A stretch of 64,000 nt of DNA from Dehalococcoidia bacterium (GCA_030611085.1 JAUWQI010000001.1:32390-96389); one strand, 5' to 3'; numbered from the stretch's first letter, positions 16,689 to 27,702 are shown. Notes: generated by a model not told the origin, from the letters alone. Translations and numbers: made by a program.

Positions 16689-16885
16689 GAGATTGTTTAG
16701 CAACCCATTTGTCATTCTGAGCCCTACGGGCGAAGAATCTCTCTTAGACTCTTCGCGGAGCCTGTCCTGGTGAGCCGAAGCTCTGAATGCAATGAAGAGG
16801 AGATTCTTCAGTCGCTTCTCTCCCTCAGAATGACAAGAAGCGAAGGGCGCAGAGTAACATTTATCACTTATTAATAAACACTCTC
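16689..16885. mobile_element. MITE-like element: TIR GAGA(T/G)TGTTTA, 6-bp TSD GGGATG, carrying composite family-A palindromes
   Basis: GAGATTGTTTA at 16689 and TAAACACTCTC ending at 16885; GGGATG at 16683-16688 and 16886-16891. Confidence 0.8.
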
Positions 16886-17467: not shown

Positions 17468-18139
17468 TCAATCCTCTTTTGCACCTTTCCCTAATACTGT
17501 TCCCCCCACTTGCCTCATCCACCGGCTGAGCACTAGTGGAAAGAACATGCTAGTAGTAGCCTGATAATTTCTGTACTCCTCACCGAAGACCAGGGTAAGA
17601 AGCTTCTCTTCCGATTTTGCCTGAAGGTAGAATAGGGGCACTGAAGAAAGGAAAATCAATATAAAGAGGAAGTCTTTGAAGAATAGGAAAAGCCCGAGGT
17701 AGGCTATCATCTTTGATGCGTATTGAGGATGCCTGATATGGCGGTATGCACCTGCCTTGACGACTCTGTGCCCTTGTTTTAAGCGGGCGCACCGTGGCTC
17801 GTTAAATTCGCCGAAGGACACAATTGCCCACCAGGATAAAAACATCCCTGCGACCAACAGCACGATGCCCATCAACTGGAGGGAAAAATCGAAGGAGCAA
17901 GAGAAGGGTAGGAACATATCAGGATACCCCAGCATAAGAAAAAGGAGTGCAAATCCCAGCGAGATGAGGATGAATACTCGGTCGAACACCACAGTAACCA
18001 GAGCCAATGTTCGGGAGGGCGCAGGCATTTGGAGGTCGGATTTTCGCATTCTGCTAAGTCTCATATACTTTATCCAGATGACAAGAAATGTCACTATCCC
18101 CAGCACTACGAGAGCCTTCATCAAAAAGATGTCTAACAT
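17468..18139 (-). CDS. Isoprenylcysteine carboxyl methyltransferase/PEMT-family membrane methyltransferase
   Basis: HRVVKAGAYRHIRHPQY, EEKLL...FGEEYRNY. Confidence 0.85.
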   Translation of the reverse strand: MLDIFLMKALVVLGIVTFLVIWIKYMRLSRMRKSDLQMPAPSRTLALVTVVFDRVFILISLGFALLFLMLGYPDMFLPFSCSFDFSLQLMGIVLLVAGMFLSWWAIVSFGEFNEPRCARLKQGHRVVKAGAYRHIRHPQYASKMIAYLGLFLFFKDFLFILIFLSSVPLFYLQAKSEEKLLTLVFGEEYRNYQATTSMFFPLVLSRWMRQVGGTVLGKGAKED

Positions 18140-18591
18140 TTGGTCATCATACCTTTCTGCAACATAGCTTTGAGTTTGGCTATGTTTCGCCTCGTGTCCT
18201 TCTTGGCATGATTTTCTAGCCCCAATTTACCAGCGAACCGACCCAGCAGCGAGCCCGGCACTGTATAATCTGCAATATAGGTTGCCTTTGTGCCACTGCC
18301 TTGAGCTTCTAACTCGAAGGTCAGCATCATTCTCCCCCCAAAGCCTGTCATCTCCCAGACGATTCTATGTGGGCGCTCATATTTGACTACCTTGCGACAG
18401 AATTCGACAGTTCTGCCACCTATTTTGGAGACCTGTGTCCAGCTTGCCCCCACTGCTAGAGGTCTTTCCAGCCGGCCCTTATTATCAACAAAGTTGCTAT
18501 TCCACGCCGACATATTATCCGGCTCGGCAATATAATCAAAGACATATTCCACCGGCGCCTGAGTGTAAAAGCTTATCTTCGTACGAGCCAT
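18133..18591 (-). CDS. SRPBCC/START-domain (polyketide cyclase-like) lipid-binding protein
   Basis: APVEYVFDYIAEPDNMSAW...LKAML pattern. Confidence 0.85.
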   Translation of the reverse strand: MARTKISFYTQAPVEYVFDYIAEPDNMSAWNSNFVDNKGRLERPLAVGASWTQVSKIGGRTVEFCRKVVKYERPHRIVWEMTGFGGRMMLTFELEAQGSGTKATYIADYTVPGSLLGRFAGKLGLENHAKKDTRRNIAKLKAMLQKGMMTKC

Positions 18592-18592
18592 T

Positions 18593-18832
18593 TCATTCCT
18601 TTCTCTTTCGGTCTCTATATTTTGTTAAGCAGTCGTGGCTGCAGAAGGTAAGCCCATCTTCCACAAACCTTAGCCACCCGGTAGCCCTCTTGCCACATAT
18701 GGCGCAGTAACTTGACCTTCCCGCCTCTCGGTCTTCATACTCCCGAACACAAGCTTGGCTACAGAACTTAAGCTCCCCTTTGCTCCAGGTTATCCTGCCC
18801 AGTTTTTTCCCACAAAGAGCACACTTTGCCAT
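18593..18832 (-). CDS. Tandem TRASH-like metal-binding protein
   Basis: Two CxxCG...FCSxxC repeats. Confidence 0.75.
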   Translation of the reverse strand: MAKCALCGKKLGRITWSKGELKFCSQACVREYEDREAGRSSYCAICGKRATGWLRFVEDGLTFCSHDCLTKYRDRKRKE

Positions 18833-18851
18833 TTTAGCCTCCCGAACTTTA

Positions 18852-19595
18852 CTAAAGTAAGCGTCTTCCTCTGGTTTTGCCTTTTATTCTGATGCCCAGA
18901 ACATCACTTAGAAGATGCTGAGCATGCCAATAAGTGTCATTAACAACTTGTTTGCCCAGGGGTAAAACCCCCAAAGGGTCAACAGCTTTTTCATCGAAAT
19001 CAAGCCCGAATTTTCTAGCAAGCTCCCTTAGCTCAAATAATATGTCCTCGATACTAAGAGTAGAGAAAGCTTCATCTTGCACATTTTCCTGAGATGTATC
19101 GGGGGCAGACTGGTGATACTCTCGTCTTTTCGCCTTTTCTTTTAACACCTTGAAGGCTCCATATACCCTCATGAGCTTCCCCAGGTTATCTCCACTGAGA
19201 TCCACGACATTACGATATTTGTTTACTAATTTTGTGGATGCCTTATCAATATCTTGCTCAGAAGCATCCTTACTCACCTCTAACATCTCATATAGGATGC
19301 TCTCAAAGTTAGAATCAAGGGAAGTCTCATCTTCGCCATGTGCTTGAGTAAATGCATCCAGCCCAAGGCGGTCATATTCTCGCTTTTTCCCCTCATCTTT
19401 CAACACAGAGTAAGCCTGATATACTTCCTCAAACTTCCCCTCGTTGCCCCTTCGTGGGTTTATTTGCGGATGATATTGGAGTGCTAATTTTATGAATGCC
19501 TTTTCCATCTTTGCTTTATTAGCATTCCTATCCACCTCTAATATCTGGTAATAATCCTGCTTGTGCATATAGTTTGCCCTCCCCAAATTTTTCAA
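18852..19595 (-). CDS. Tandem J-domain-like protein lacking HPD
   Basis: DYYQILEV...LALQYHPQ...AYSVL...REYD and a second LYEMLEV...AFKVL...RREY; start probably ATG 19568. Confidence 0.8.
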   Translation of the reverse strand: MKNLGRANYMHKQDYYQILEVDRNANKAKMEKAFIKLALQYHPQINPRRGNEGKFEEVYQAYSVLKDEGKKREYDRLGLDAFTQAHGEDETSLDSNFESILYEMLEVSKDASEQDIDKASTKLVNKYRNVVDLSGDNLGKLMRVYGAFKVLKEKAKRREYHQSAPDTSQENVQDEAFSTLSIEDILFELRELARKFGLDFDEKAVDPLGVLPLGKQVVNDTYWHAQHLLSDVLGIRIKGKTRGRRLL

Positions 19596-19601
19596 CCGAG
19601 T

Positions 19602-21176
19602 TTAAATTTTCAAAATGATAATTACCAATAGAGCTGTAATTACTACTACGGCGATAGCCCATGCTGCGTGGTTATTATTATTGCTCTTCACATTAAATTC
19701 CATCTCACCGCGTTCGATTTTGTTCATTATTGCTGTTGCCTGCCTCGGCAAATCCTTGATGAAATCAACAGCCTCGGCAGCGGAGTCCGCTAAATCGAGC
19801 AGAAAGTCCTTGGGCTCGGTTAAGCCCAATACATCTGCTTTGTTTCTCAATCTCTTGCGCCCGAGTCGCTTAAGATGGGGGTCGAACATATCGTATACAT
19901 TAAAGCCAGGATATAGCTGGTTTGCCAGTATCTCCACATAGAGGTAGGTTTTAAACACCAACACCATGTGCCTTGGCAGCCTGACTCCATATCCAAAAAC
20001 GGTCTTAGTGAGGTCATCCATAATATGGCCCACTCCCCTTTGCCCCAGGGGCATCTTGCCGTCTACAAAGTGGCGATCGATAAATGTGCCCATCTCCAAT
20101 TCTAGCTTCTCAACATCTACCTCATCTCTTTCTCCGGTATGCATCCTCATAAGCTCCTTCGTCAGCCTAATCGGGTCGTTGGAGTCGAAAGCCAGTATCA
20201 AGTCTCCCAGCATGTCCAACTGCTTATCTTCTATGCGCTCTATCATGCCGAAGTCCAGGACTGCAATGACATTGTCTTCCAGCACATATAAATTCCCCGG
20301 GTGGGGGTCAGCCTGCAGAAAGCCATCCTCGTGTATCATTTTCAGATAAGCCCTGGTCACATTCAGGGCTATTTCATATTTATCCAACCCTGCTCTGTCC
20401 ATAGCCTTAAAGTCATTTATCCTGATGCCCTCTATGAGTTCCTCGACTAGCACCCTCTTGGAGGTGTAATCCCAGTATACCTTGGGTATATACACTGTAT
20501 CATCATTCTTGAAGTTTTTGGCTATTTTGTCGGCATTGCGTCCCTCCAGAATATAATCTATCTCCCTCCTCAGTGAAGTGCCAAAGGCATCAACTATATC
20601 TGGCAGATGACTGCTTCTAATTCTAGGGAATAACTTATCAATAAGGAGGGCGAGGAAATCCAGGAGCGACAAGTCGACTTCAATTATGCTCTCTATATCA
20701 GGACGCTGAATCTTCACTGCCACCTTTTTCCGCCTGCTTCTTCCCTGCCTCAGCACCGCCTTATGCACCTGCCCCAGGGATGCGGCTGCAAGTGGCTCCT
20801 TATCAAATGAGACAAACAATTCCTCTACGGGGGCTGCCAACTCTTCCTCGATGATGTCCTCCACATCCTTATAGCTGAAGGGAGGTACTTGCTCCTGTAG
20901 CTTCTCCATCTCTTTCTTCAGCGCTTCAGGACACTCGGCCCTGGTGCTCAGAATTTGACCAAATTTGATAAAAGTGGGTCCCAGTTCCTCTATTAAACGC
21001 CGAACTAGCGCTCCAATGCCACCGCGGCTGCCCACCCGATTTCGGCGTTTGCCCCATATCTTGCTGAGTAAGACGCGAAATAGAAACTTTATCATTATGC
21101 CAATTATCCCGAGGAATCGGCGCAGCGTTACAAACCTTCGATATGTGTTGCTGAGTTCCCAAAGTGCTTTGTTCAT
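19602..21176 (-). CDS. ABC1/AarF/UbiB atypical kinase
   Basis: FIKFGQILSTR, AAASLGQVH, VAVKIQRP, ADPHPGN, DFGM; C-terminal TM helix. Confidence 0.93.
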   Translation of the reverse strand: MNKALWELSNTYRRFVTLRRFLGIIGIMIKFLFRVLLSKIWGKRRNRVGSRGGIGALVRRLIEELGPTFIKFGQILSTRAECPEALKKEMEKLQEQVPPFSYKDVEDIIEEELAAPVEELFVSFDKEPLAAASLGQVHKAVLRQGRSRRKKVAVKIQRPDIESIIEVDLSLLDFLALLIDKLFPRIRSSHLPDIVDAFGTSLRREIDYILEGRNADKIAKNFKNDDTVYIPKVYWDYTSKRVLVEELIEGIRINDFKAMDRAGLDKYEIALNVTRAYLKMIHEDGFLQADPHPGNLYVLEDNVIAVLDFGMIERIEDKQLDMLGDLILAFDSNDPIRLTKELMRMHTGERDEVDVEKLELEMGTFIDRHFVDGKMPLGQRGVGHIMDDLTKTVFGYGVRLPRHMVLVFKTYLYVEILANQLYPGFNVYDMFDPHLKRLGRKRLRNKADVLGLTEPKDFLLDLADSAAEAVDFIKDLPRQATAIMNKIERGEMEFNVKSNNNNHAAWAIAVVVITALLVIIILKI

Positions 21177-21207
21177 CGCCTTTTCATCTCGTCTGCTCTT
21201 AAATTAA

Positions 21208-21241
21208 AAGTTGCCCCCAACACAAAAGCAGGGGGCAACTT
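21208..21241 (-). terminator. Intrinsic terminator between the phasin-like gene and the kinase
   Basis: AAGTTGCCCCC/GGGGGCAACTT 11-bp stem followed by a U-rich tract on the minus strand. Confidence 0.7.
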
Positions 21242-21372
21242 CCAAGAGCTTGCTATATTTGGCACCATCGCCAACCGCAACCATAAGCCGTTTACACCAA
21301 GAAACCGCTCTTCATTGTTTTCACAGGCACCTGGTGCAATACCCGGCTTCCATTAGCTACTTTCTTTAGACT

Positions 21373-21768
21373 TTACTTGATTTTGGCAATTAACTCTTCG
21401 GCCTCATCTAAGACCTTCCTAGCCCTTGCAATAGCCTCCTCTGTTCCTTCTACAGATTTGGCCTTGATTTTGGCGCCAGCATCGGTTAGCTCTTGCTCTA
21501 TCGATGCCACTGCCTTTCTAGCTTTGCTTAGGTGCTCCTTAGCCGGGACCCTTGTCTCTTCAGGCTCCTTTTCTGCTTTCGTCTCTGCTTCTGCTAGCGC
21601 CTCTTTTACTCTAGCCATAGATCTCATAGCTTCATCTAGTGCCTTATCGCTTGCTTCTATAGTCCCCTTTTTGAGCAGGCCCACTATTTCGCCAGCCCCG
21701 ACTCTGGTTTCCTCTAGCCCCTTCCTTATCCTCGTTATCGCTTCTCCTAGTTCTTTACCAATCTCCAT
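21373..21768 (-). CDS. All-helical amphipathic protein (phasin/apolipoprotein-like)
   Basis: A/E/K-rich, no aromatic residues, internal repeat (EETRV twice); AAAGGAGG RBS; lies next to an ABC1 kinase. Confidence 0.65.
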   Translation of the reverse strand: MEIGKELGEAITRIRKGLEETRVGAGEIVGLLKKGTIEASDKALDEAMRSMARVKEALAEAETKAEKEPEETRVPAKEHLSKARKAVASIEQELTDAGAKIKAKSVEGTEEAIARARKVLDEAEELIAKIK

Positions 21769-21867
21769 TTCTCCTCCTTTAACGTTTGCTCTTACATTAG
21801 AAAACGCCAGGGCAATAAACTTGCCCGCTAAAAATTTCTCGCCACTGAGTTTTGCTTATTGGTTACA

Positions 21868-22053
21868 TCATTTTGCTACACTCTTATGAGTTACCTCGCG
21901 CTCTAAGGCAAAAAGAGCAAGCCTCATGATGTCGACTTCAACACCACACTGCGGACAGTCTTCGGTCATCGAACCTCTTATCGGGGTTTCATCGGTATCA
22001 ACCTCAGTAGTAATCGCCCCCCCACAATATGGGCACTCTATCTCAAGCTTCAC
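21868..22053 (-). CDS. CPxCG zinc-ribbon protein
   Basis: CPYCG...EDCPQCG; AAGGAGG upstream of GTG. Confidence 0.75.
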   Translation of the reverse strand: MKLEIECPYCGGAITTEVDTDETPIRGSMTEDCPQCGVEVDIMRLALFALEREVTHKSVAK

Positions 22054-22064
22054 AATATGCCTCC

Positions 22065-22319
22065 TTATGATTTGGCTATTAGCTTCCCATCGCAGTATAT
22101 GTCTATTTTTAGACCTGAGAGCCCTCGACCAAATTTCACTCTCATCTCATGCTTTTCTTGCTCGCCTAGGGTGAATCTCTGCGTCTCACTAAACGAAGTA
22201 ACTGCCCACTTATCTATGATGTCATCTCCGTCAACCGTTACCTTCCTCCTGCCCAGCAAGCCTTGCTCTGCCTCAACCTCATGCCTTTCTGTATCCCCTA
22301 CTGTAGTTCTAAGTTTCAT
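22065..22319 (-). CDS. Small beta-rich hypothetical protein
   Basis: AAGGAGG RBS; twofold beta repeat (VTVDGDDI / IYCDGKLI). Confidence 0.75.
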   Translation of the reverse strand: MKLRTTVGDTERHEVEAEQGLLGRRKVTVDGDDIIDKWAVTSFSETQRFTLGEQEKHEMRVKFGRGLSGLKIDIYCDGKLIAKS

Positions 22320-22344
22320 CTCACCCTCCTTTCTTATACTTTAT

Positions 22345-22797
22345 TTACCCCAGTTTCCATACTGCCTTGAAGGTCATATCCACCATATCTTCTGGAATGG
22401 CGACATGTGCTATCCCTTCGAAGTCAAGGGTAGTGTTTCCATGTTCCATCTGATTTATTATCATCTTGGCGAGGTCACCACTCAGGGGAGTTTTGACCTC
22501 CGACTTAGCATACTCCGCTGTATGCGATGGGATATAAACCTCCTCATCAACATATCCTTCGCCGACTTTCGCGTTGCCCTCTCGGAAATATATCCTGTAT
22601 TTAGCTCGCTGCACCATCACAGGAAACTCGTTGGGGTTGAAGATGTGGAACACTATTTCCAGGGTCAGCAGTCGCTCCCGAAGACCGAGACTAGCAAATT
22701 TAGCCCCACGCCCACGAATAGCAAACCTTAATTGTTTAACCTCGTCCTTATCCTCTTTGTCTCTCACTCTTTCCAGCATCTCCACACTAGACTTCAC
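22345..22797 (-). CDS. LEA type 2 / WHy-domain protein
   Basis: IFNPNEFPV motif (NPN), KVGEG, beta-rich. Confidence 0.75.
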   Translation of the reverse strand: MKSSVEMLERVRDKEDKDEVKQLRFAIRGRGAKFASLGLRERLLTLEIVFHIFNPNEFPVMVQRAKYRIYFREGNAKVGEGYVDEEVYIPSHTAEYAKSEVKTPLSGDLAKMIINQMEHGNTTLDFEGIAHVAIPEDMVDMTFKAVWKLG

Positions 22798-22844
22798 CCT
22801 TTCAGGTCAAATTTAGCCATTAGTCAGACAGCGATAAGAATATT

Positions 22845-23048
22845 TTAGATGTTTAGTAGGAATGGAGATGAATCCCCTTCTAGAGCTTCGAAATTTATCT
22901 CTATATTGCCGATTAGCCGAGGGGTCTGCCCCACAAATTCGAGCTCTATGTCATCTATGTCTATAACGAAATTTCTCTCCCACAATCTGGCTCTAGCTTC
23001 GCCCTCTTCTCCAGAGGTGAGAGCTAATCCTACTTTTTCCTCTGACAT
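22845..23048 (-). CDS. Small helix+beta-hairpin paralogue 5
   Basis: NFVIDIDDIELEFVGQTPRLIGNIEINF aligns with the other paralogues; GAGGTG 6 nt before ATG 23048. Confidence 0.7.
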   Translation of the reverse strand: MSEEKVGLALTSGEEGEARARLWERNFVIDIDDIELEFVGQTPRLIGNIEINFEALEGDSSPFLLNI

Positions 23049-23058
23049 TGCCATCACC

Positions 23059-23241
23059 TCACTCTCTCTCAATTTTTCTCATTGGCTCCATATGGAACTT
23101 AATCTTTCCCATCAAGTCAAGCGACTTCCCAAAAAATTTACGACCCACTTCCTCCATATCCAGCTCCTCAGTCGTTCCCTCATCAACAGCCCTGTTTAAG
23201 TAGTCAAATACCGACTGCCGACCTCTCTGCCCCCTTTTCAT
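23059..23241 (-). CDS. Small helix+beta-hairpin paralogue 4
   Basis: VFDYLNRAVDEGTTEELDMEEVGRKFFGKSLDLMGKI aligns with paralogue 3; GGGAGGT RBS before ATG 23241. Confidence 0.8.
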   Translation of the reverse strand: MKRGQRGRQSVFDYLNRAVDEGTTEELDMEEVGRKFFGKSLDLMGKIKFHMEPMRKIERE

Positions 23242-23326
23242 TGCTTTACCTCCCGCGCCATAGCAGGCTGAGTCCCGGGGCACAGCCTGCTATGGATTTA
23301 ATTTTCAAGGCATGCCGCCTTAGTGT

Positions 23327-23503
23327 TTACTTGGGTTTCTTTAAGGTTCCCAGGCTGATGTTTACCTTCCCCAACAACTTGAGGGAGCGTCCAAAGAGCT
23401 TGCCGCCAACATCTTCCATATCAATGTTGAGGTCGGTTTCCTTATCGGTAATCTTGTCTACCAGGTCAAGGACTGGTCCCTGTTCTTTGTCTACTTCTGC
23501 CAT
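23327..23503 (-). CDS. Small helix+beta-hairpin paralogue 3, 58 aa, not in the ORF track
   Basis: MAEVDKEQGPVLDLVDKITDKETDLNIDMEDVGGKLFGRSLKLLGKVNISLGTLKKPK; AAGGAGG RBS; 50/58 identical to the C-terminus of 23605-24024. Confidence 0.9.
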   Translation of the reverse strand: MAEVDKEQGPVLDLVDKITDKETDLNIDMEDVGGKLFGRSLKLLGKVNISLGTLKKPK

Positions 23504-23604
23504 TGTTCTTACCCTCCTTATAAATTTTCTATAATTTGCAAGCTATGCCCCCGGGACGCGGCTTACTATAGGGGTTAATCTTCAATGTAACTTTCTCTCA
23601 GTAT

Positions 23605-24024
23605 TTACTTGGACTTCTTCAAGGTTCCCAGGTCAATGTTTACCTTCCCCAGCAATCTTAAGGAACGCCCAAAGAGTTTGCCACCGACATCTTCAATATT
23701 GATGTTCAGGCTGGTCTCCTTATCGGTAATCTTGTCTATCAGGTCGAGCACTGGTCCTTGCTCTTTTTCTACTTCTGCCATTGTTATTACCTCCTCTGGT
23801 ATTTTTTCTATTTCCACTGCTTCTTCTACCGCTGGTACTTCCTCTATCAGCTTCTTCGCTGCTGCTATAAATGTGCCGCCTCTATCTCCGACTATCCCTT
23901 CGAGCTCCTCAGGGCTGGCTACTGCTACAGCCTCGACCGTCATATACCCGGCTGCAGCCAGTTTTTTTGCCGTTGTCGGACCGACCCCGGCAACCTTCTG
24001 TAGTTCCTCTTCAGTGTCAATCAT
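23605..24024 (-). CDS. RadA/Rad51-type HhH domain fused to paralogue 2 (internal start at 23781)
   Basis: GVGPTTAKKLAAAGYMTVEAVAVASPEEL; last 58 aa match 23327-23503. Confidence 0.85.
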   Translation of the reverse strand: MIDTEEELQKVAGVGPTTAKKLAAAGYMTVEAVAVASPEELEGIVGDRGGTFIAAAKKLIEEVPAVEEAVEIEKIPEEVITMAEVEKEQGPVLDLIDKITDKETSLNINIEDVGGKLFGRSLRLLGKVNIDLGTLKKSK

Positions 24025-24398
24025 CTTAGCATTACCTCCTTTCTAAATATATTTTAGAGAATTAAACCTCGTGCCTTCTGAAGCCATTCCACAGGCTTTT
24101 TGAAGACACTAGCCACTTAATTGACTAGAGCACTGATTGTGCTGAGACATTCTCCTCTAATAGTTCAGAGGAGAATACATCCGAAATGCTGAAAACCCTG
24201 CCTTTGGTATTAAGAGACCTGGGGATACCGACTTACAGACCTTCAGCATTTGCTTAGAGCTGGCTAATGGTGCCAGCGAAAAGAGCAATACCTGTTCTAT
24301 AGGCATTGCTGATAATGAGTGATAAGGATTGTTCTTCACTTCCTTAATCACTGTGCTAAAAATTGCTTTCATCTTCACCCTTTTCTCTCTTCCCTTTC

Positions 24399-24590
24399 TC
24401 ACCTCTGCCTTTTCCTCTTTTTCTTCCCCCATCCTACCTTTAATCCATCTGCGCCAAACTTGCCATCTAAGCGGATAATTGTTCTATCAGTAAAAGGAAA
24501 CTTAATTTCCATATTATCGAAGTCTATAGACAAATTACATTCTCTATCTTCAATCTTTTTCTTTAGGTCGTCTAAAAATCCTTCACCCAT
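24399..24590 (-). CDS. Small helix+beta-hairpin paralogue 1 (divergent)
   Basis: FLDDLKKKIEDRECNLSIDFDNMEIKFPF...IRLDGKF has the same pattern; GGGGAGG RBS. Confidence 0.7.
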   Translation of the reverse strand: MGEGFLDDLKKKIEDRECNLSIDFDNMEIKFPFTDRTIIRLDGKFGADGLKVGWGKKKRKRQR

Positions 24591-24678
24591 GTTTAGTCTT
24601 CCTCCCCAATGGACTTTAAATTATATGGCGCATCCAACATCATATACGCGTTTTACTTGTGGGGTTTTCACCCCCACC

Positions 24679-25134
24679 TTACCTCTCTCCCTTCAAAGGA
24701 GAGGAATTCAAGCCTCGCAATGACATCGATTTAATCCTTTTATCATTTCTATGTGGCAGCTCAGTCTCCCCATAGCGGCATAGCGAGGCCCTAATCTGAG
24801 CTGCTAGCTCGTCATAATTTGTGGGTAACTGCATGTAATAATCCCAGTCCGTAGGGACTTCCGAGTTTGGGGAATAAACTTCCCCCTCCGATTTAGTACC
24901 CAAAAGGATGAGAGGAAGATTAAATAAACGGTGTATTTGCCAACAGAGAGTGAAGCCATCTAGCCCGGGAGGGCTATCCCTGACAACAACTGCGTCAGGG
25001 GTAGCCTTATCCACTATTTTAAACCCCGCTAATTCGGATGAGGCTACCATCACCTCAAAGCCAGACCCGGTAAGAGCTGAAGCTATCTTCTTTGCCGAGG
25101 CAAGGTCGCTGTCGATAACAAGAACACTATTCAT
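24679..25134 (-). CDS. Atypical receiver-domain protein; C-terminus formed by repeat DNA
   Basis: VLVIDSD, PGLDGF, LPLILL; no output domain; tail SLRGLNSSPLKGER read from family-A and family-D repeats. Confidence 0.7.
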   Translation of the reverse strand: MNSVLVIDSDLASAKKIASALTGSGFEVMVASSELAGFKIVDKATPDAVVVRDSPPGLDGFTLCWQIHRLFNLPLILLGTKSEGEVYSPNSEVPTDWDYYMQLPTNYDELAAQIRASLCRYGETELPHRNDKRIKSMSLRGLNSSPLKGER

Positions 25135-25273
25135 TTCACCCCTTTAGGACTTTGCTACAAACATAAGCTCTTTCAGCTAATATCTTAATGAGAGCTTGCT
25201 ACCCTTATTTAAGAATATACTAAATAATATTTTAGTTTGCCTTCGCGAGGGTGCTAATGTTCGGTCGCTCTCA

Positions 25274-25442
25274 TGTCACCCTGAGCCCTTCGCTTCATGT
25301 CATTCTGAAGAAGCGGAGCGACTGAAGAATCTCCTCTTCAGTTCCTTCCTATCGTCAGGACTTAGAGCTTCGGCTTACCAAGACAGGCTTCGCGAAGGAT
25401 CTAAAAAGGACAAAGAGATTCTTCGCTCCACTCAGAATGACA
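25274..25442. repeat. Composite family-A element
   Basis: TGTCACCCTGAGCCCTTCGCTTCATGTCATTCTGAAG...GAAGAATCT...AGATTCTTCGCTCCACTCAGAATGACA; shares blocks with the recG insertion. Confidence 0.9.
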
Positions 25443-25683
25443 GAGAAAGGTGAATGGTTGCCTGTGCCCCCGAGTGGTTCAAAGCAGGCTTGCTTTCGCT
25501 AGCACGAAGGTGCCTACCACGCGGGGGCGCTTTATGCCCCCCGCCTTTTCAGCCAAGTCAAAGCAAAACTATGCTTTGGTACTCATACCAATAAGCTATT
25601 GACAAAAATATTATTTAGCTGCCTGTTGCTCCGATAGGGCTCCGAGGATAGGCGAGTAAAATTGCGTCTAAGGAGGAAAAATC

Positions 25684-26670
25684 ATGCAACAGGAGCTAAA
25701 TAGATTTCTTCACTATCTTGAGGTTGAGAAGGGATATTCCCAAGGCACTATCGAGGCATATCGGCTTGATATAGGAAAAGGGCTATTCCCATTCCTGCAT
25801 GAGATTGAGATTGCCACGCCTTCGGCTCGCAATGACAGGGTAGAAGAGGTCACGAAGGATGACATCCGAGCATATTTGGACTATCTAGCTGTTGAAAGGG
25901 CTAACTCCGGTGTTACCAGAGCACGCAAGCTAGCAGCAATAAAGTCATTCTTCAATTACTTGGTGGAAAATGAAGGGCTTGAAGCAAACCCGGCAGCTTC
26001 GGTAAAGAGTCCCAAGATACCTGAAAAGGAGCCGGTGTATCTGAGTGAGGAAGAGTGCCTTCGTTTTTTACAGATAATAGCCCAAAAAGCCAGACCACAG
26101 GTTAGAGAGCGGGATATGGCAATAGCTATGCTCTTGCTTCATACTGGGCTAAGGGTATCGGAGCTAACAAATCTGAAATTTTCTAATGTTGATCTTGAGA
26201 GAAGTCAGATAAAAATAACCAGGAAAGGGAGTAAAGAACAATATCTTCACCTGAATGGTGAAGCAGTAAGCGTATTGGTAAATTACCTTCATAGCTATCC
26301 ATATGACAGGAGATTGCCACGCTTCGCTCGCAATGACAGGGGGGAGATGGCTCGCAATGACGGAGGACTTTTGCCACAGGCTCAAAACGGCAGGTTTTTT
26401 GTAGGAACCAAAGGTCAAAATCTGAACCGCACTTATGTTTATAGTGTGGTGCGAAGATACTTAGAACTGGCGGGTATCAATAAAGATAAGCAGGGACCTC
26501 ACCTCTTGAGACATACCTTCTGCACCAGGCTACATCAGAAGGGAGTCTCACCCTTCGTGATAAAGGAACTCGCTGGTCACAAAAGCCTTAATACAACCAT
26601 GAGATATATCAAAATAGAAAATAAGGAGCAGTCTGAAGCCCTTGATAGACTGGAGTTTGGTATTCTTTAA
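25684..26670 (+). CDS. Tyrosine recombinase (XerC/D-like)
   Basis: TGLRVSEL, RKGSKE, HLLRHTF, LAGH...TTMRY catalytic set; AAGGAGG RBS; two in-frame repeat insertions. Confidence 0.93.
   Translation: MQQELNRFLHYLEVEKGYSQGTIEAYRLDIGKGLFPFLHEIEIATPSARNDRVEEVTKDDIRAYLDYLAVERANSGVTRARKLAAIKSFFNYLVENEGLEANPAASVKSPKIPEKEPVYLSEEECLRFLQIIAQKARPQVRERDMAIAMLLLHTGLRVSELTNLKFSNVDLERSQIKITRKGSKEQYLHLNGEAVSVLVNYLHSYPYDRRLPRFARNDRGEMARNDGGLLPQAQNGRFFVGTKGQNLNRTYVYSVVRRYLELAGINKDKQGPHLLRHTFCTRLHQKGVSPFVIKELAGHKSLNTTMRYIKIENKEQSEALDRLEFGIL
26585..26653. repeat. 69-bp direct repeat copy 1 (3' part of the recombinase gene)
   Basis: 68/69 identical to 27634-27702. Confidence 0.95.
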
Positions 26671-26702
26671 GAAATCTTAGCTAGTTAGACAATTTCGGTA
26701 AG

Positions 26703-26878
26703 GTCGCTTCGCTTAGGGCTTTTCACCCTCGCAATGACAAAGGGGGAAGGCTCACAATGACACTTTTGAGGGCTGAGGGAGTCCTCTCCCTCAGCATGAA
26801 GGAACAGATTCCTTCATGCCTCAGATTGCCATGCCTTCGGCACGCAACTGCACTCAGGGCTTCGGCTCAGGGTGACAT
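26703..26878. repeat. Cluster of family-A half elements and hairpins
   Basis: CTCGCAATGACA, CTCACAATGACA, AGATTGCCATGCCTTCGG, CTCAGGGTGACA. Confidence 0.8.
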
Positions 26879-26984
26879 AGAGAACATTTTTTCTATTTTA
26901 CCACTAAATATGCTCAAAAAGAATATTCGAATGAGTTAAACTAGAGGACATTTCTAAAGGGTCTTGGCACCTCTACTAATAGAC

Positions 26985-27026
26985 TTGACAATTATGGTGG
27001 ACAGCTGTATCATCATTGTAGATACA
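26985..27026 (+). promoter_or_regulatory. mazEF sigma70 promoter with palindromic operator
   Basis: TTGACA-17nt-TATCAT; TGTATC...GATACA inverted repeat overlapping the -10. Confidence 0.7.
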
Positions 27027-27043
27027 TATATGGAGGTACTCCA

Positions 27044-27286
27044 ATGCAAAGACGCATCCAAAAGTGGGGAAACAGCCTGGCGCTGCGTATCCCGAAGCCA
27101 TTTGCCCAAGAAATAGGTCTCGACCGTAATGTGCCGGTTAATGTGTCGCTGGAAGACGGGAGACTCATTGTGGTACCTGTCGCTGTGACCTCCATGACTC
27201 TCGAACGGCTATTGGAGCAGATCACAGAGGACAATATCCATCGCGAAGCTGATACAGGTCTGGCAATCGGTGAGGAGGTATGGTAA
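27044..27286 (+). CDS. mazE: MazE antitoxin (AbrB fold)
   Basis: IQKWGNSLALRIPK, LERLL..IT..N.H, GEEVW. Confidence 0.93.
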   Translation: MQRRIQKWGNSLALRIPKPFAQEIGLDRNVPVNVSLEDGRLIVVPVAVTSMTLERLLEQITEDNIHREADTGLAIGEEVW

Positions 27287-27651
27287 AAGGTAAAGTATAT
27301 GTTCCCAACCGCGGTGATGCCATCTGGATCACTTTGAATCCTCAGGCTGGCTACGAACAATCCGGGCGTCGGCCAGCAGTTGTCCTCTCACCAAGGATAT
27401 ACAATGGCAAGGTAGGGCTTGCTATTCTGTGCCCCATCACGAATCAAATCAAAGGTTATCCTTTTGAGATTCTCATCCCTTCTGCTCTAGCCGTCAGTGG
27501 AGCGATCCTGTCTGACCAGGTGAAGAGCCTGGATTGGCGAGCGCGGGAAGCTGAATGGATTTGCAGACTACCGGACAACACTATTGCGGAGACATTTCAG
27601 AAACTGAGCACACTATTGTTTCAGGGAGCGAATGCCTTAATACAACCATGA
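27280..27651 (+). CDS. mazF: MazF/PemK endoribonuclease toxin
   Basis: YVPNRGD, PQAGYEQSGRRPAVVLS, DQVKSLDWRAR. Confidence 0.93.
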   Translation: MVKGKVYVPNRGDAIWITLNPQAGYEQSGRRPAVVLSPRIYNGKVGLAILCPITNQIKGYPFEILIPSALAVSGAILSDQVKSLDWRAREAEWICRLPDNTIAETFQKLSTLLFQGANALIQP

Positions 27652-27702
27652 GATATATCAAAATAGAAAATAGGGAGCAGTCTGAAGCCCTTGATAGACT
27701 GG
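27634..27702. repeat. 69-bp direct repeat copy 2; supplies the mazF stop codon
   Basis: 68/69 identical to 26585-26653. Confidence 0.95.

Follow-up and report, generated by a model that had tools for sequence, protein, structure and literature searches.

Introduction

In the solved wall of gas vesicles, as one structural account describes it (PMC9994262), helix alpha1 of GvpA bridges the ribs with its nonpolar side towards the lumen, and helix alpha2 folds onto the beta-hairpin. Gas-vesicle (gvp) clusters are described with a termination signal after gvpA and with several identical or near-identical gvpA copies (PMC9501494), and gvp genes have been noted in metagenome-assembled genomes of Chloroflexota (PMC11650866). 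The subject of this study is a set of five small genes at positions 22845..24590, on the minus strand of a stretch of 64,000 nucleotides from a Dehalococcoidia bacterium (GCA_030611085.1, JAUWQI010000001.1:32390-96389), hereafter the window. The explanation that we prefer, at a probability of roughly 0.4, is that their products form an amphipathic wall like that of GvpA, enclosing a compartment that is probably filled with gas and is assembled with helpers of its own that are not Gvp proteins.

The array proteins resemble the GvpA family (GvpA, GvpJ, GvpM and GvpS; PF00741; PDB 8gbs) in size, in a polar N-terminal arm of about 10 residues and in an amphipathic hairpin of similar length. They share a helix motif with it (two hydrophobic residues, D/E, two hydrophobic residues, D, K/R, a hydrophobic residue, any residue, D, K/R/E, G/E), and in both cases several near-identical major copies are accompanied by divergent minor paralogues. 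The array family differs in having no detectable hairpin similarity, no helix alpha2, a fully polar outer face, a basic tail and frequent N-terminal fusions. A bulge, as read from the residue pattern, lies in strand 1 in the array family versus strand 2 in GvpA.

Five paralogous genes of one unnamed family

A sequence-only reading of the window had proposed a five-member paralogue array at this place, including a gene missing from the open reading frame (ORF) track, and both proposals held up: all five ORFs are present in the window sequence. The additional gene (23327..23503, minus strand) is preceded by a strong Shine-Dalgarno motif and encodes 58 amino acids, 50 of them identical to the C-terminal 58 residues of the protein encoded at 23605..24024. 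Between these copies, 17 codons carry synonymous differences and 8 carry non-synonymous ones, with 7, 3 and 19 differences at codon positions 1, 2 and 3. Because of the Shine-Dalgarno motif and the synonymous excess over its twin, 23327..23503 is judged to be a real gene; it falls below a cut-off of 60 amino acids, which explains why it is missing from the ORF track. Its product has 39 homologues in the protein collection, with 70 to 94% local identity.

An iterated hidden Markov model (HMM), run on 1102 ORFs and proteins, reached convergence with the five genes, and no other ORF of the window, among its members. In order to avoid circularity, leave-one-subtype-out HMMs were used, with 23,469 windows from proteins of the same genome as background. 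The genes at 23059..23241, 24399..24590 and 22845..23048 scored 48.8, 22.1 and 16.7 bits, versus background maxima of 10.9, 9.9 and 8.3 bits, and the members of each subtype left out in this way all exceeded the best background window (B, 17/17; C, 13/13; D, 12/12; E, 6/6; archaeal type, 14/14). By these profile scores the five genes are paralogues of one unnamed family, as their alignment with the 58-amino-acid gene had suggested to the earlier reader.

A metagenome scan yielded 27 loci with the family, 24 of which, together with the window, make up the 25 loci counted here. Up to nine copies of the domain are present per locus, in five subtypes (A to E), and the order A-B-C recurs in 12 of the 25. 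The three loci that were dropped (L032:7619-8141, L033 and L034) have a response regulator and, after it, a remnant that covers only residues 1 to 37 of the domain; the rest of the operon is absent, and they are possibly decayed arrays.

In the window, the 58-amino-acid protein represents the major subtype, A, with a polar arm, an amphipathic helix, an amphipathic beta-hairpin and a short basic tail. The other A-type copy (23605..24024, minus strand) is fused to a helix-hairpin-helix (HhH) domain (Pfam HHH_5, E 3.7e-10). An intact Shine-Dalgarno motif stands ahead of an internal ATG at 23781 in this gene, so that both the HhH fusion and a free 58-amino-acid form may be made from it. Subtype B (23059..23241, minus strand; 60 amino acids) has a helix ending in DEG, like the DKG of GvpA. 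Subtype C (22845..23048, minus strand; 67 amino acids) is acidic and has kept the hairpin and lost the helix motif. Subtype D (24399..24590, minus strand; 63 amino acids) ends in a basic WG-K/R tail, has no xFG turn, and has a match in its own genome at E 3.2e-12. An ORF at 24157..24432, which overlaps the D gene and has no counterpart in other loci, was taken as spurious.

Predicted fold and amphipathic pattern

When 33 and 103 members of the family were scanned against Pfam and NCBIfam, the matches were scattered and weak, with at most four members per matched family. AlphaFold2 (AF2), supplied with 103 sequences, placed a helix at residues 9 to 20 and strands at 23 to 36 and 39 to 51, with the turn at F37-G38 (pLDDT 63, pTM 0.24); supplied with 40 close sequences it gave the helix only (pLDDT 49). 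The predicted topology is thus a helix followed by a hairpin, as the sequence-only reading had described, except that this pattern does not extend to every copy: the gene at 22845..23048 is without the helix motif, and that at 24399..24590 has FPFTDR in place of an xFG turn. Searches with the model of pTM 0.24 found no Foldseek match at E<=0.001 and a best Z of 2.3 with VIA; GvpA was not among the matches listed.

The AF2 strands and the alternation of residues give a predicted beta-hairpin with one continuous nonpolar face. With the faces assigned from residue alternation, the nonpolar face is 83% hydrophobic (97% with Gly) and 2% charged, and the opposite face is 7% hydrophobic and 54% charged. 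The corresponding values for 46 GvpA, GvpJ, GvpM and GvpS sequences are 94% hydrophobic (100% with Gly) and 0% charged on the nonpolar face, and 41% hydrophobic and 33% charged on the other. In the AF2 model the chain ends seven residues after strand 2, with no helix alpha2; archaeal forms end three residues after it. Subtypes A, B and D carry basic tails. The outer hydrophobic residues V25, V47 and A49 of GvpA correspond to D/T24, N/K48 and S/D50 in the family. Joint loss of alpha2 and of the outer hydrophobic residues would be coherent, and is compatible with a simplified wall and equally with packing of the helix on the nonpolar face. An argument that a polar outer face excludes a GvpA-like wall was rejected, because it is alpha2, not alpha1, that packs there in the published description (PMC9994262).

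Likeness to GvpA above background

For comparison, 46 GvpA-family sequences were taken from the gvp loci of the phylum, and 23,322 windows of equal length served as background. The HMM of the array family scored 37 of the 46 above every background window, with the signal coming from the helix. A helix-only version of the same HMM placed 11 of the 46 above background, and in the reverse test, with the GvpA HMM, 6 of 103 family members were above background. When a profile of 103 rows was run against 177,635 PDB sequences, the single match at E<=10 was GvpA (8gbs; E 1.5), over about residues 4 to 24; a single E-type sequence gave two unrelated matches. An amphipathic helix alpha1 ending in D-K/R-G is present in the family, with G itself in 20% of rows, and is absent from subtype C. 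A register chosen by eye (GvpA I26-D27-A28/A44-R45-V46 with I27-D28-M29/G45-K46-V47) needed two gaps, had no statistical support and was not counted. On these profile comparisons, the likeness to GvpA is above background and confined to the helix. GvpA is the best known look-alike of the family, and an amphipathic helix of 15 residues cannot prove homology.

Links to gas-vesicle gene clusters

Operon context points to a link between the family and gvp clusters that does not depend on the helix motif. In the phylum, gvpA is carried by 32 of 301 genomes. A winged-helix gene upstream of the array in locus L019 has matches in five of the 301, four of them within ∼2 kb of a gvpA-family gene (hypergeometric P ∼5e-4, with kin that are not independent). 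The fifth match (G206, E 8.5e-5) is an unrelated small helix-turn-helix gene with no gvp neighbours. In the matched gvp clusters the winged-helix domain forms the end of the gene after gvpA, which mostly encodes a long helical-repeat protein; before the array it stands alone in L019 and L028, and P0040 carries it as an in-frame fusion with the small domain. The tetratricopeptide-repeat (TPR) gene of L019 has a match at E<=1e-45 in one of the 301 genomes, with 52% identity, and that match lies inside the gvp cluster of G252. The gene that follows gvpA in G061 has an HhH domain at its end instead, with 26% identity to the HhH partner in the array.

Genome G087, from the same family as the array genome, has a full cluster (GvpA, an N-like AAA protein, O, G, K and F/L) between a gamma-carbonic-anhydrase (gamma-CA) gene and a tyrosine recombinase gene. 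This recombinase, found in 2 of 41 genomes, is 76 to 78% identical to the recombinase of the window, and the G087 cluster lies one gene away from the insertion site of the array. The array operon thus shares a flanking recombinase and nearly the same chromosomal site with G087. With the canonical clusters in its own family and order (G087, G252, G284, G044 and G061) it shares the winged-helix tail, the TPR gene, the HhH tail, J domains and upstream two-component regulators. Unlike them, it has no gvpN, F/L, G, K, O, Hsp20 or CDC48-like ATPase, and it has a LEA_2 protein, an 84-amino-acid beta protein, a zinc-ribbon protein and an ABC1 kinase.

Helical-repeat proteins with a winged-helix or HhH end are encoded directly after gvpA at L065:14754-15590, L084:6098-6895, L082:532-1674 and L083:7754-9055. 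These genes have no Pfam GvpC match, and their products are apparently an unnamed GvpC analogue with a possible DNA-binding tail. In the array no match to such an outer repeat protein was found; the tail domains of the gvpA-adjacent helical-repeat genes do occur there fused to the small domain. The canonical gvp clusters of L065 (G087:C10), L066/L067 (G252), L068 (G284) and L084 (G044), in small-genome relatives, have many extra parts, including GvpF/L fused to a J domain, DnaJ-type zinc fingers, Hsp20, a CDC48-like ATPase, ArsA, DnaK and several winged-helix genes.

A conserved stem-loop after the last A copy

A conserved 17-bp stem-loop (23258..23295, minus strand; inverted repeat I10) lies between the last A copy and B. 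A strong fold is present at 10 of 14 A-to-B junctions versus 1 of 21 other A 3' regions. Changes on both sides were found in 12 of the 17 pairs, a value reached by none of 500 shuffles, and slid controls were 38 to 47% paired; the rows were ten junctions picked by folding score, and related rows inflate this result. The stem-loop likely acts in the mRNA as a step-down or stabilising element. The division into two major and three minor copies, which the sequence-only reading had conjectured, agrees with the tandem arrangement and with the covarying hairpin that follows the last major copy. The spacer after each A copy (e.g., 23520..23595) has been duplicated with the gene and has a conserved core of the CCCCGGGG type, with the full stem only after the last copy. 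A promoter and terminator scan gave a result equal to that of shuffled sequences.

Other genes of the operon

Most metagenome contigs are too short to show further operon genes, and the counts below are to be read accordingly. All genes of the operon lie on the minus strand in the window. At its head is a receiver-domain response regulator (24679..25134; Pfam Response_reg, E 2.6e-7), and in eight related loci the receiver domain is fused to an A-type copy. The HhH domain is fused to an A-type domain, as judged by motif, in 8 of the 25 loci. Downstream of the array are three conserved members: a LEA_2 (WHy)-like protein (22345..22779; Pfam LEA_2, E 3.8e-5, below the cut-off; 7/25 loci), an 84-amino-acid predicted all-beta protein (22065..22319; weak match to Pfam FAIM1, E 0.0014; 11/25 loci) and a zinc-ribbon protein with a CPYC...CxxC pattern (21868..22053; Pfam Cys_rich_CPXG, E 1.2e-6; 10/25 loci). 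A helical protein of 131 amino acids (21373..21768), apolipophorin- or phasin-like by eye, has no Pfam match over the cut-off and no tblastn match in loci L008 to L084.

An ABC1/UbiB atypical kinase (19602..21176; Pfam ABC1, E 3.4e-80) is linked to the array in 5 of the 25 loci (L012, L018, L019 and L027 among them), sharing its strand in three of them and converging on it in two. It is followed by a gene for a protein with two J domains (18852..19595; Pfam DnaJ in two stretches). The distal genes at 17468..18832 encode, according to a Pfam scan, a Cys-rich protein of 79 amino acids, a START/SRPBCC protein and an ICMT/PEMT-like methyltransferase; they are candidate members of the operon, with no matches in other array loci. 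START and PEMT paralogues are present elsewhere in the genome. Contigs from two runs skip 253 nt within the START gene (18155..18409), and a shorter paralogous START-PEMT pair on genome contig C1 may be the origin of these contigs. In two loci (L015:4133-4615 and L016:1173-1592) different small membrane proteins with hydrophobic N- and C-terminal segments are inserted in the array; they have no family match.

Genomic island, host and distribution

All seven relatives that were examined lack the stretch 17468..27651, with argS no more than 1.5 kb from their gamma-CA-like gene; approximately this stretch is therefore an insertion. The tyrosine recombinase gene (25684..26670, plus strand), with its close relative in G087, diverges from the operon. 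The islands of G000 and G087 lie on opposite sides of the gamma-CA gene in opposite orientation, and are therefore related elements with different cargo, not the product of one event. A 72-nt direct repeat (97%) at 26582..26653 and 27631..27702 duplicates the 3' end of the recombinase gene beyond a gene pair (27044..27651) that we take to be mazEF-like, which suggests that the toxin-antitoxin pair entered by recombination at the 72-nt sequence. A multicopy family of short repeats with very high contig depth is present at both ends of the island (16744..16860 and 25273..25404) and also at 25808..25840, 26326..26365 and 26823..26877; those within the recombinase gene are in-frame insertions relative to the G087 copy.

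The genome measures 1.16 Mb and is 83% complete. Four of the five listed runs that carry the island are cold-seep metagenomes of one study, one of them perhaps the source, and no RNA run was among those listed; run contigs aligned to the island report DNA presence and strain variants only. The family was not found in 400 genomes of the phylum, 60 of relatives and 399 of the class (overlapping samples), nor in the viral contigs or plasmids searched. A pattern scan of a genome collection gave three short matches (18 to 27 residues); these were put down to chance and left out. There are also short relatives with a single domain that are labelled Euryarchaeota and Halobacteria. In the ESM Atlas, the 58-amino-acid protein matched three unnamed, mainly archaeal clusters at 0.86 to 0.90, with Bathyarchaeota commonest among the few that have a record; nothing named was found there for P0056.

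Proposed mechanism and competing explanations

If the array builds a GvpA-like wall, the small domains would polymerise side by side into a thin amphipathic sheet, in which the hairpins would hydrogen-bond into ribs and the nonpolar face and the helix would point towards the lumen. The tandem, near-identical A copies would provide the bulk supply of subunits, and the stem-loop after the last A would lower expression of B, C and the downstream genes. Subtypes B, C, D and E could act as nucleators or caps, as GvpJ and GvpM do. The N-terminally fused HhH, winged-helix and receiver domains would be displayed on the outside, like the same domain types on the GvpC-like tails, and might serve to tether the shell or to regulate it. 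In place of GvpN and chaperones, the system would use the ABC1 ATPase/kinase and the J-domain protein.

Several results weigh against this explanation. The helix motif was picked by eye beforehand, and subtypes C, D and E give no GvpA signal. Hairpin-only HMMs placed 0 of 46 GvpA-family sequences and 0 of 103 members above background, and the GvpA helix HMM alone also placed 0 of 103 members above a background that reached 13.4 bits. Alignment of the family with GvpA by hhalign gave probabilities of 41% and 46%, for alignments restricted to the helix and the first part of strand 1. The E value of 1.5 for 8gbs is not significant, and a profile of 33 rows missed GvpA in the PDB and returned two unrelated matches instead. 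Pfam Gas_vesicle (PF00741) matched 0 of 103 members at E<=10. The 83%-complete genome has no match to PF00741 or PF06386 (gvpA and gvpF/L), and tblastn of 109 ORFs from gvp clusters found no relatives of gvpN, G, K or O in it, whereas gvpFGKLN are described as conserved in all known clusters (PMC9501494); matches to those 109 ORFs were confined to generic AAA, Hsp20, DnaK, J-domain, ArsA and regulator genes elsewhere than the array. Within the links to gvp clusters, the window genome has neither this winged-helix gene nor a close TPR gene, so that those links rest on L019, L028 and P0040; HhH and NarL-type regulators are common, which makes the links through them weak; and the gvp loci examined yielded no LEA_2, beta protein, zinc ribbon or ABC1. 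Finally, the array comes from seep metagenomes, a setting in which the benefit of buoyancy is less evident. The presence of gas vesicles in seep sediment is conceivable, because genomes of the same family carry canonical clusters and because gas-saturated pore water would lessen collapse. The proposal of the sequence-only reading that the proteins are remote relatives with the GvpA fold, or else an analogous polymerising subunit, therefore stands only in part: the helix motif (37/46), the sole PDB match, the amphipathic hairpin and the gvp-linked context speak for it, and the hairpin result, the PF00741 result and the absence of alpha2 do not. Its profile checks were likewise divided, between the PDB match of the 103-row profile on one side and the hhalign values and the 33-row profile on the other; the fold searches, at a pTM of 0.24, gave nothing usable.

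Because gvpA, F/L, N, G, K and O were not detected in the genome, the operon does not qualify as a canonical gas-vesicle cluster, nor does it by gene content as a classical polyhydroxyalkanoate (PHA) or neutral-lipid locus. An unlikely though serious alternative is that the same amphipathic polymer coats a hydrophobic inclusion, or forms a lipid-carrying groove loaded by ABC1/UbiB, with the HhH and winged-helix fusions tethering it to DNA. PhaF and PhaM tether PHA granules to DNA in this way, and phasin/PhaF granule coats and ABC1-kinase lipid-body loci resemble the array in their small abundant amphipathic proteins, DNA-binding fusions and ABC1/UbiB neighbour. Phasins are helical, unlike the hairpin domain of the array. 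The ABC1 kinase in two orientations (5/25 loci), LEA_2 (7/25), the START, PEMT-like and apolipophorin-like genes of the window, the strict amphipathicity and the failure to find Gvp assembly factors would all suit a lipid coat. However, unlike PHA and lipid-body systems, the 83%-complete array genome yielded no PHA or wax-ester synthase (PhaC_N, PF07167; WS/DGAT, PF03007; other synthase types were not searched), and the START, PEMT and helical proteins were not seen in other loci, most of whose contigs are short. No link between LEA_2 and lipid-transfer folds was found in passages of one paper (PMC6791001), and a lipid coat would leave unexplained why winged-helix, TPR and recombinase genes connect the array with gvp clusters.

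Those links would be equally unexplained if the family were an oligomerisation module, which we consider somewhat less probable again. Its helices would pack on the nonpolar face of a small sheet to give closed oligomers or a solid filament, a nucleoid or stress scaffold on which the HhH, winged-helix and receiver domains are displayed, and the GvpA motif would be a chance amphipathic helix. The frequency of HhH and receiver fusions (eight loci each), the basic tails on A, B and D, a GvpA similarity limited to ∼15 residues, a pTM of 0.24 that leaves the position of the helix undefined, and archaeal relatives known here only as single proteins are consistent with such a module, but a bulk structure would better suit the fixed subtypes and order of as many as nine copies, the tandem near-identical major copies and the covarying hairpin. 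The context might instead have been acquired by hitch-hiking, an improbable account in which both cargoes travelled on the same type of recombinase island to one hot spot, where regulators and neighbours were exchanged, and the array is a membrane insert, an amyloid-like fibre or an inhibitor set. Absence of 17468..27651 between argS and the gamma-CA gene in all seven relatives, the mazEF pair with its 72-nt duplication at the same place and the opposed positions and orientations of the G000 and G087 islands argue for traffic of this kind; the different flanks of other array loci (e.g., L017, L019 and L024) and the in-frame fusion of the winged helix to the small domain in P0040 count against it.

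Significance

Literature word searches returned no description of the family or the operon, although an unnamed family is beyond the reach of such searches. To our knowledge there are no established relatives of GvpA outside gas-vesicle clusters. In a broader and more doubtful interpretation, the array would represent a second class of protein-walled organelle, filled with gas (or a hydrophobic phase) and so far overlooked in bacteria and archaea of sediments, with a minimal GvpA relative without alpha2, an ABC1 kinase-LEA_2 toolkit in place of GvpN/F/L/G/K/O, and surface domains fused directly to wall subunits. The GvpA fold, which otherwise stands isolated, would then have its first known relative in this family. 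Should the lumen hold lipid, the array would define a new type of protein-coated inclusion and offer a concrete substrate for ABC1 kinases. Because GvpA is described as tolerating fusions poorly (PMC10961726), the natural fusions matter for engineering. A family with the arm-helix-hairpin plan, other helpers and natural fusions would provide a test of the minimal gas-vesicle wall and of the origin of GvpA.

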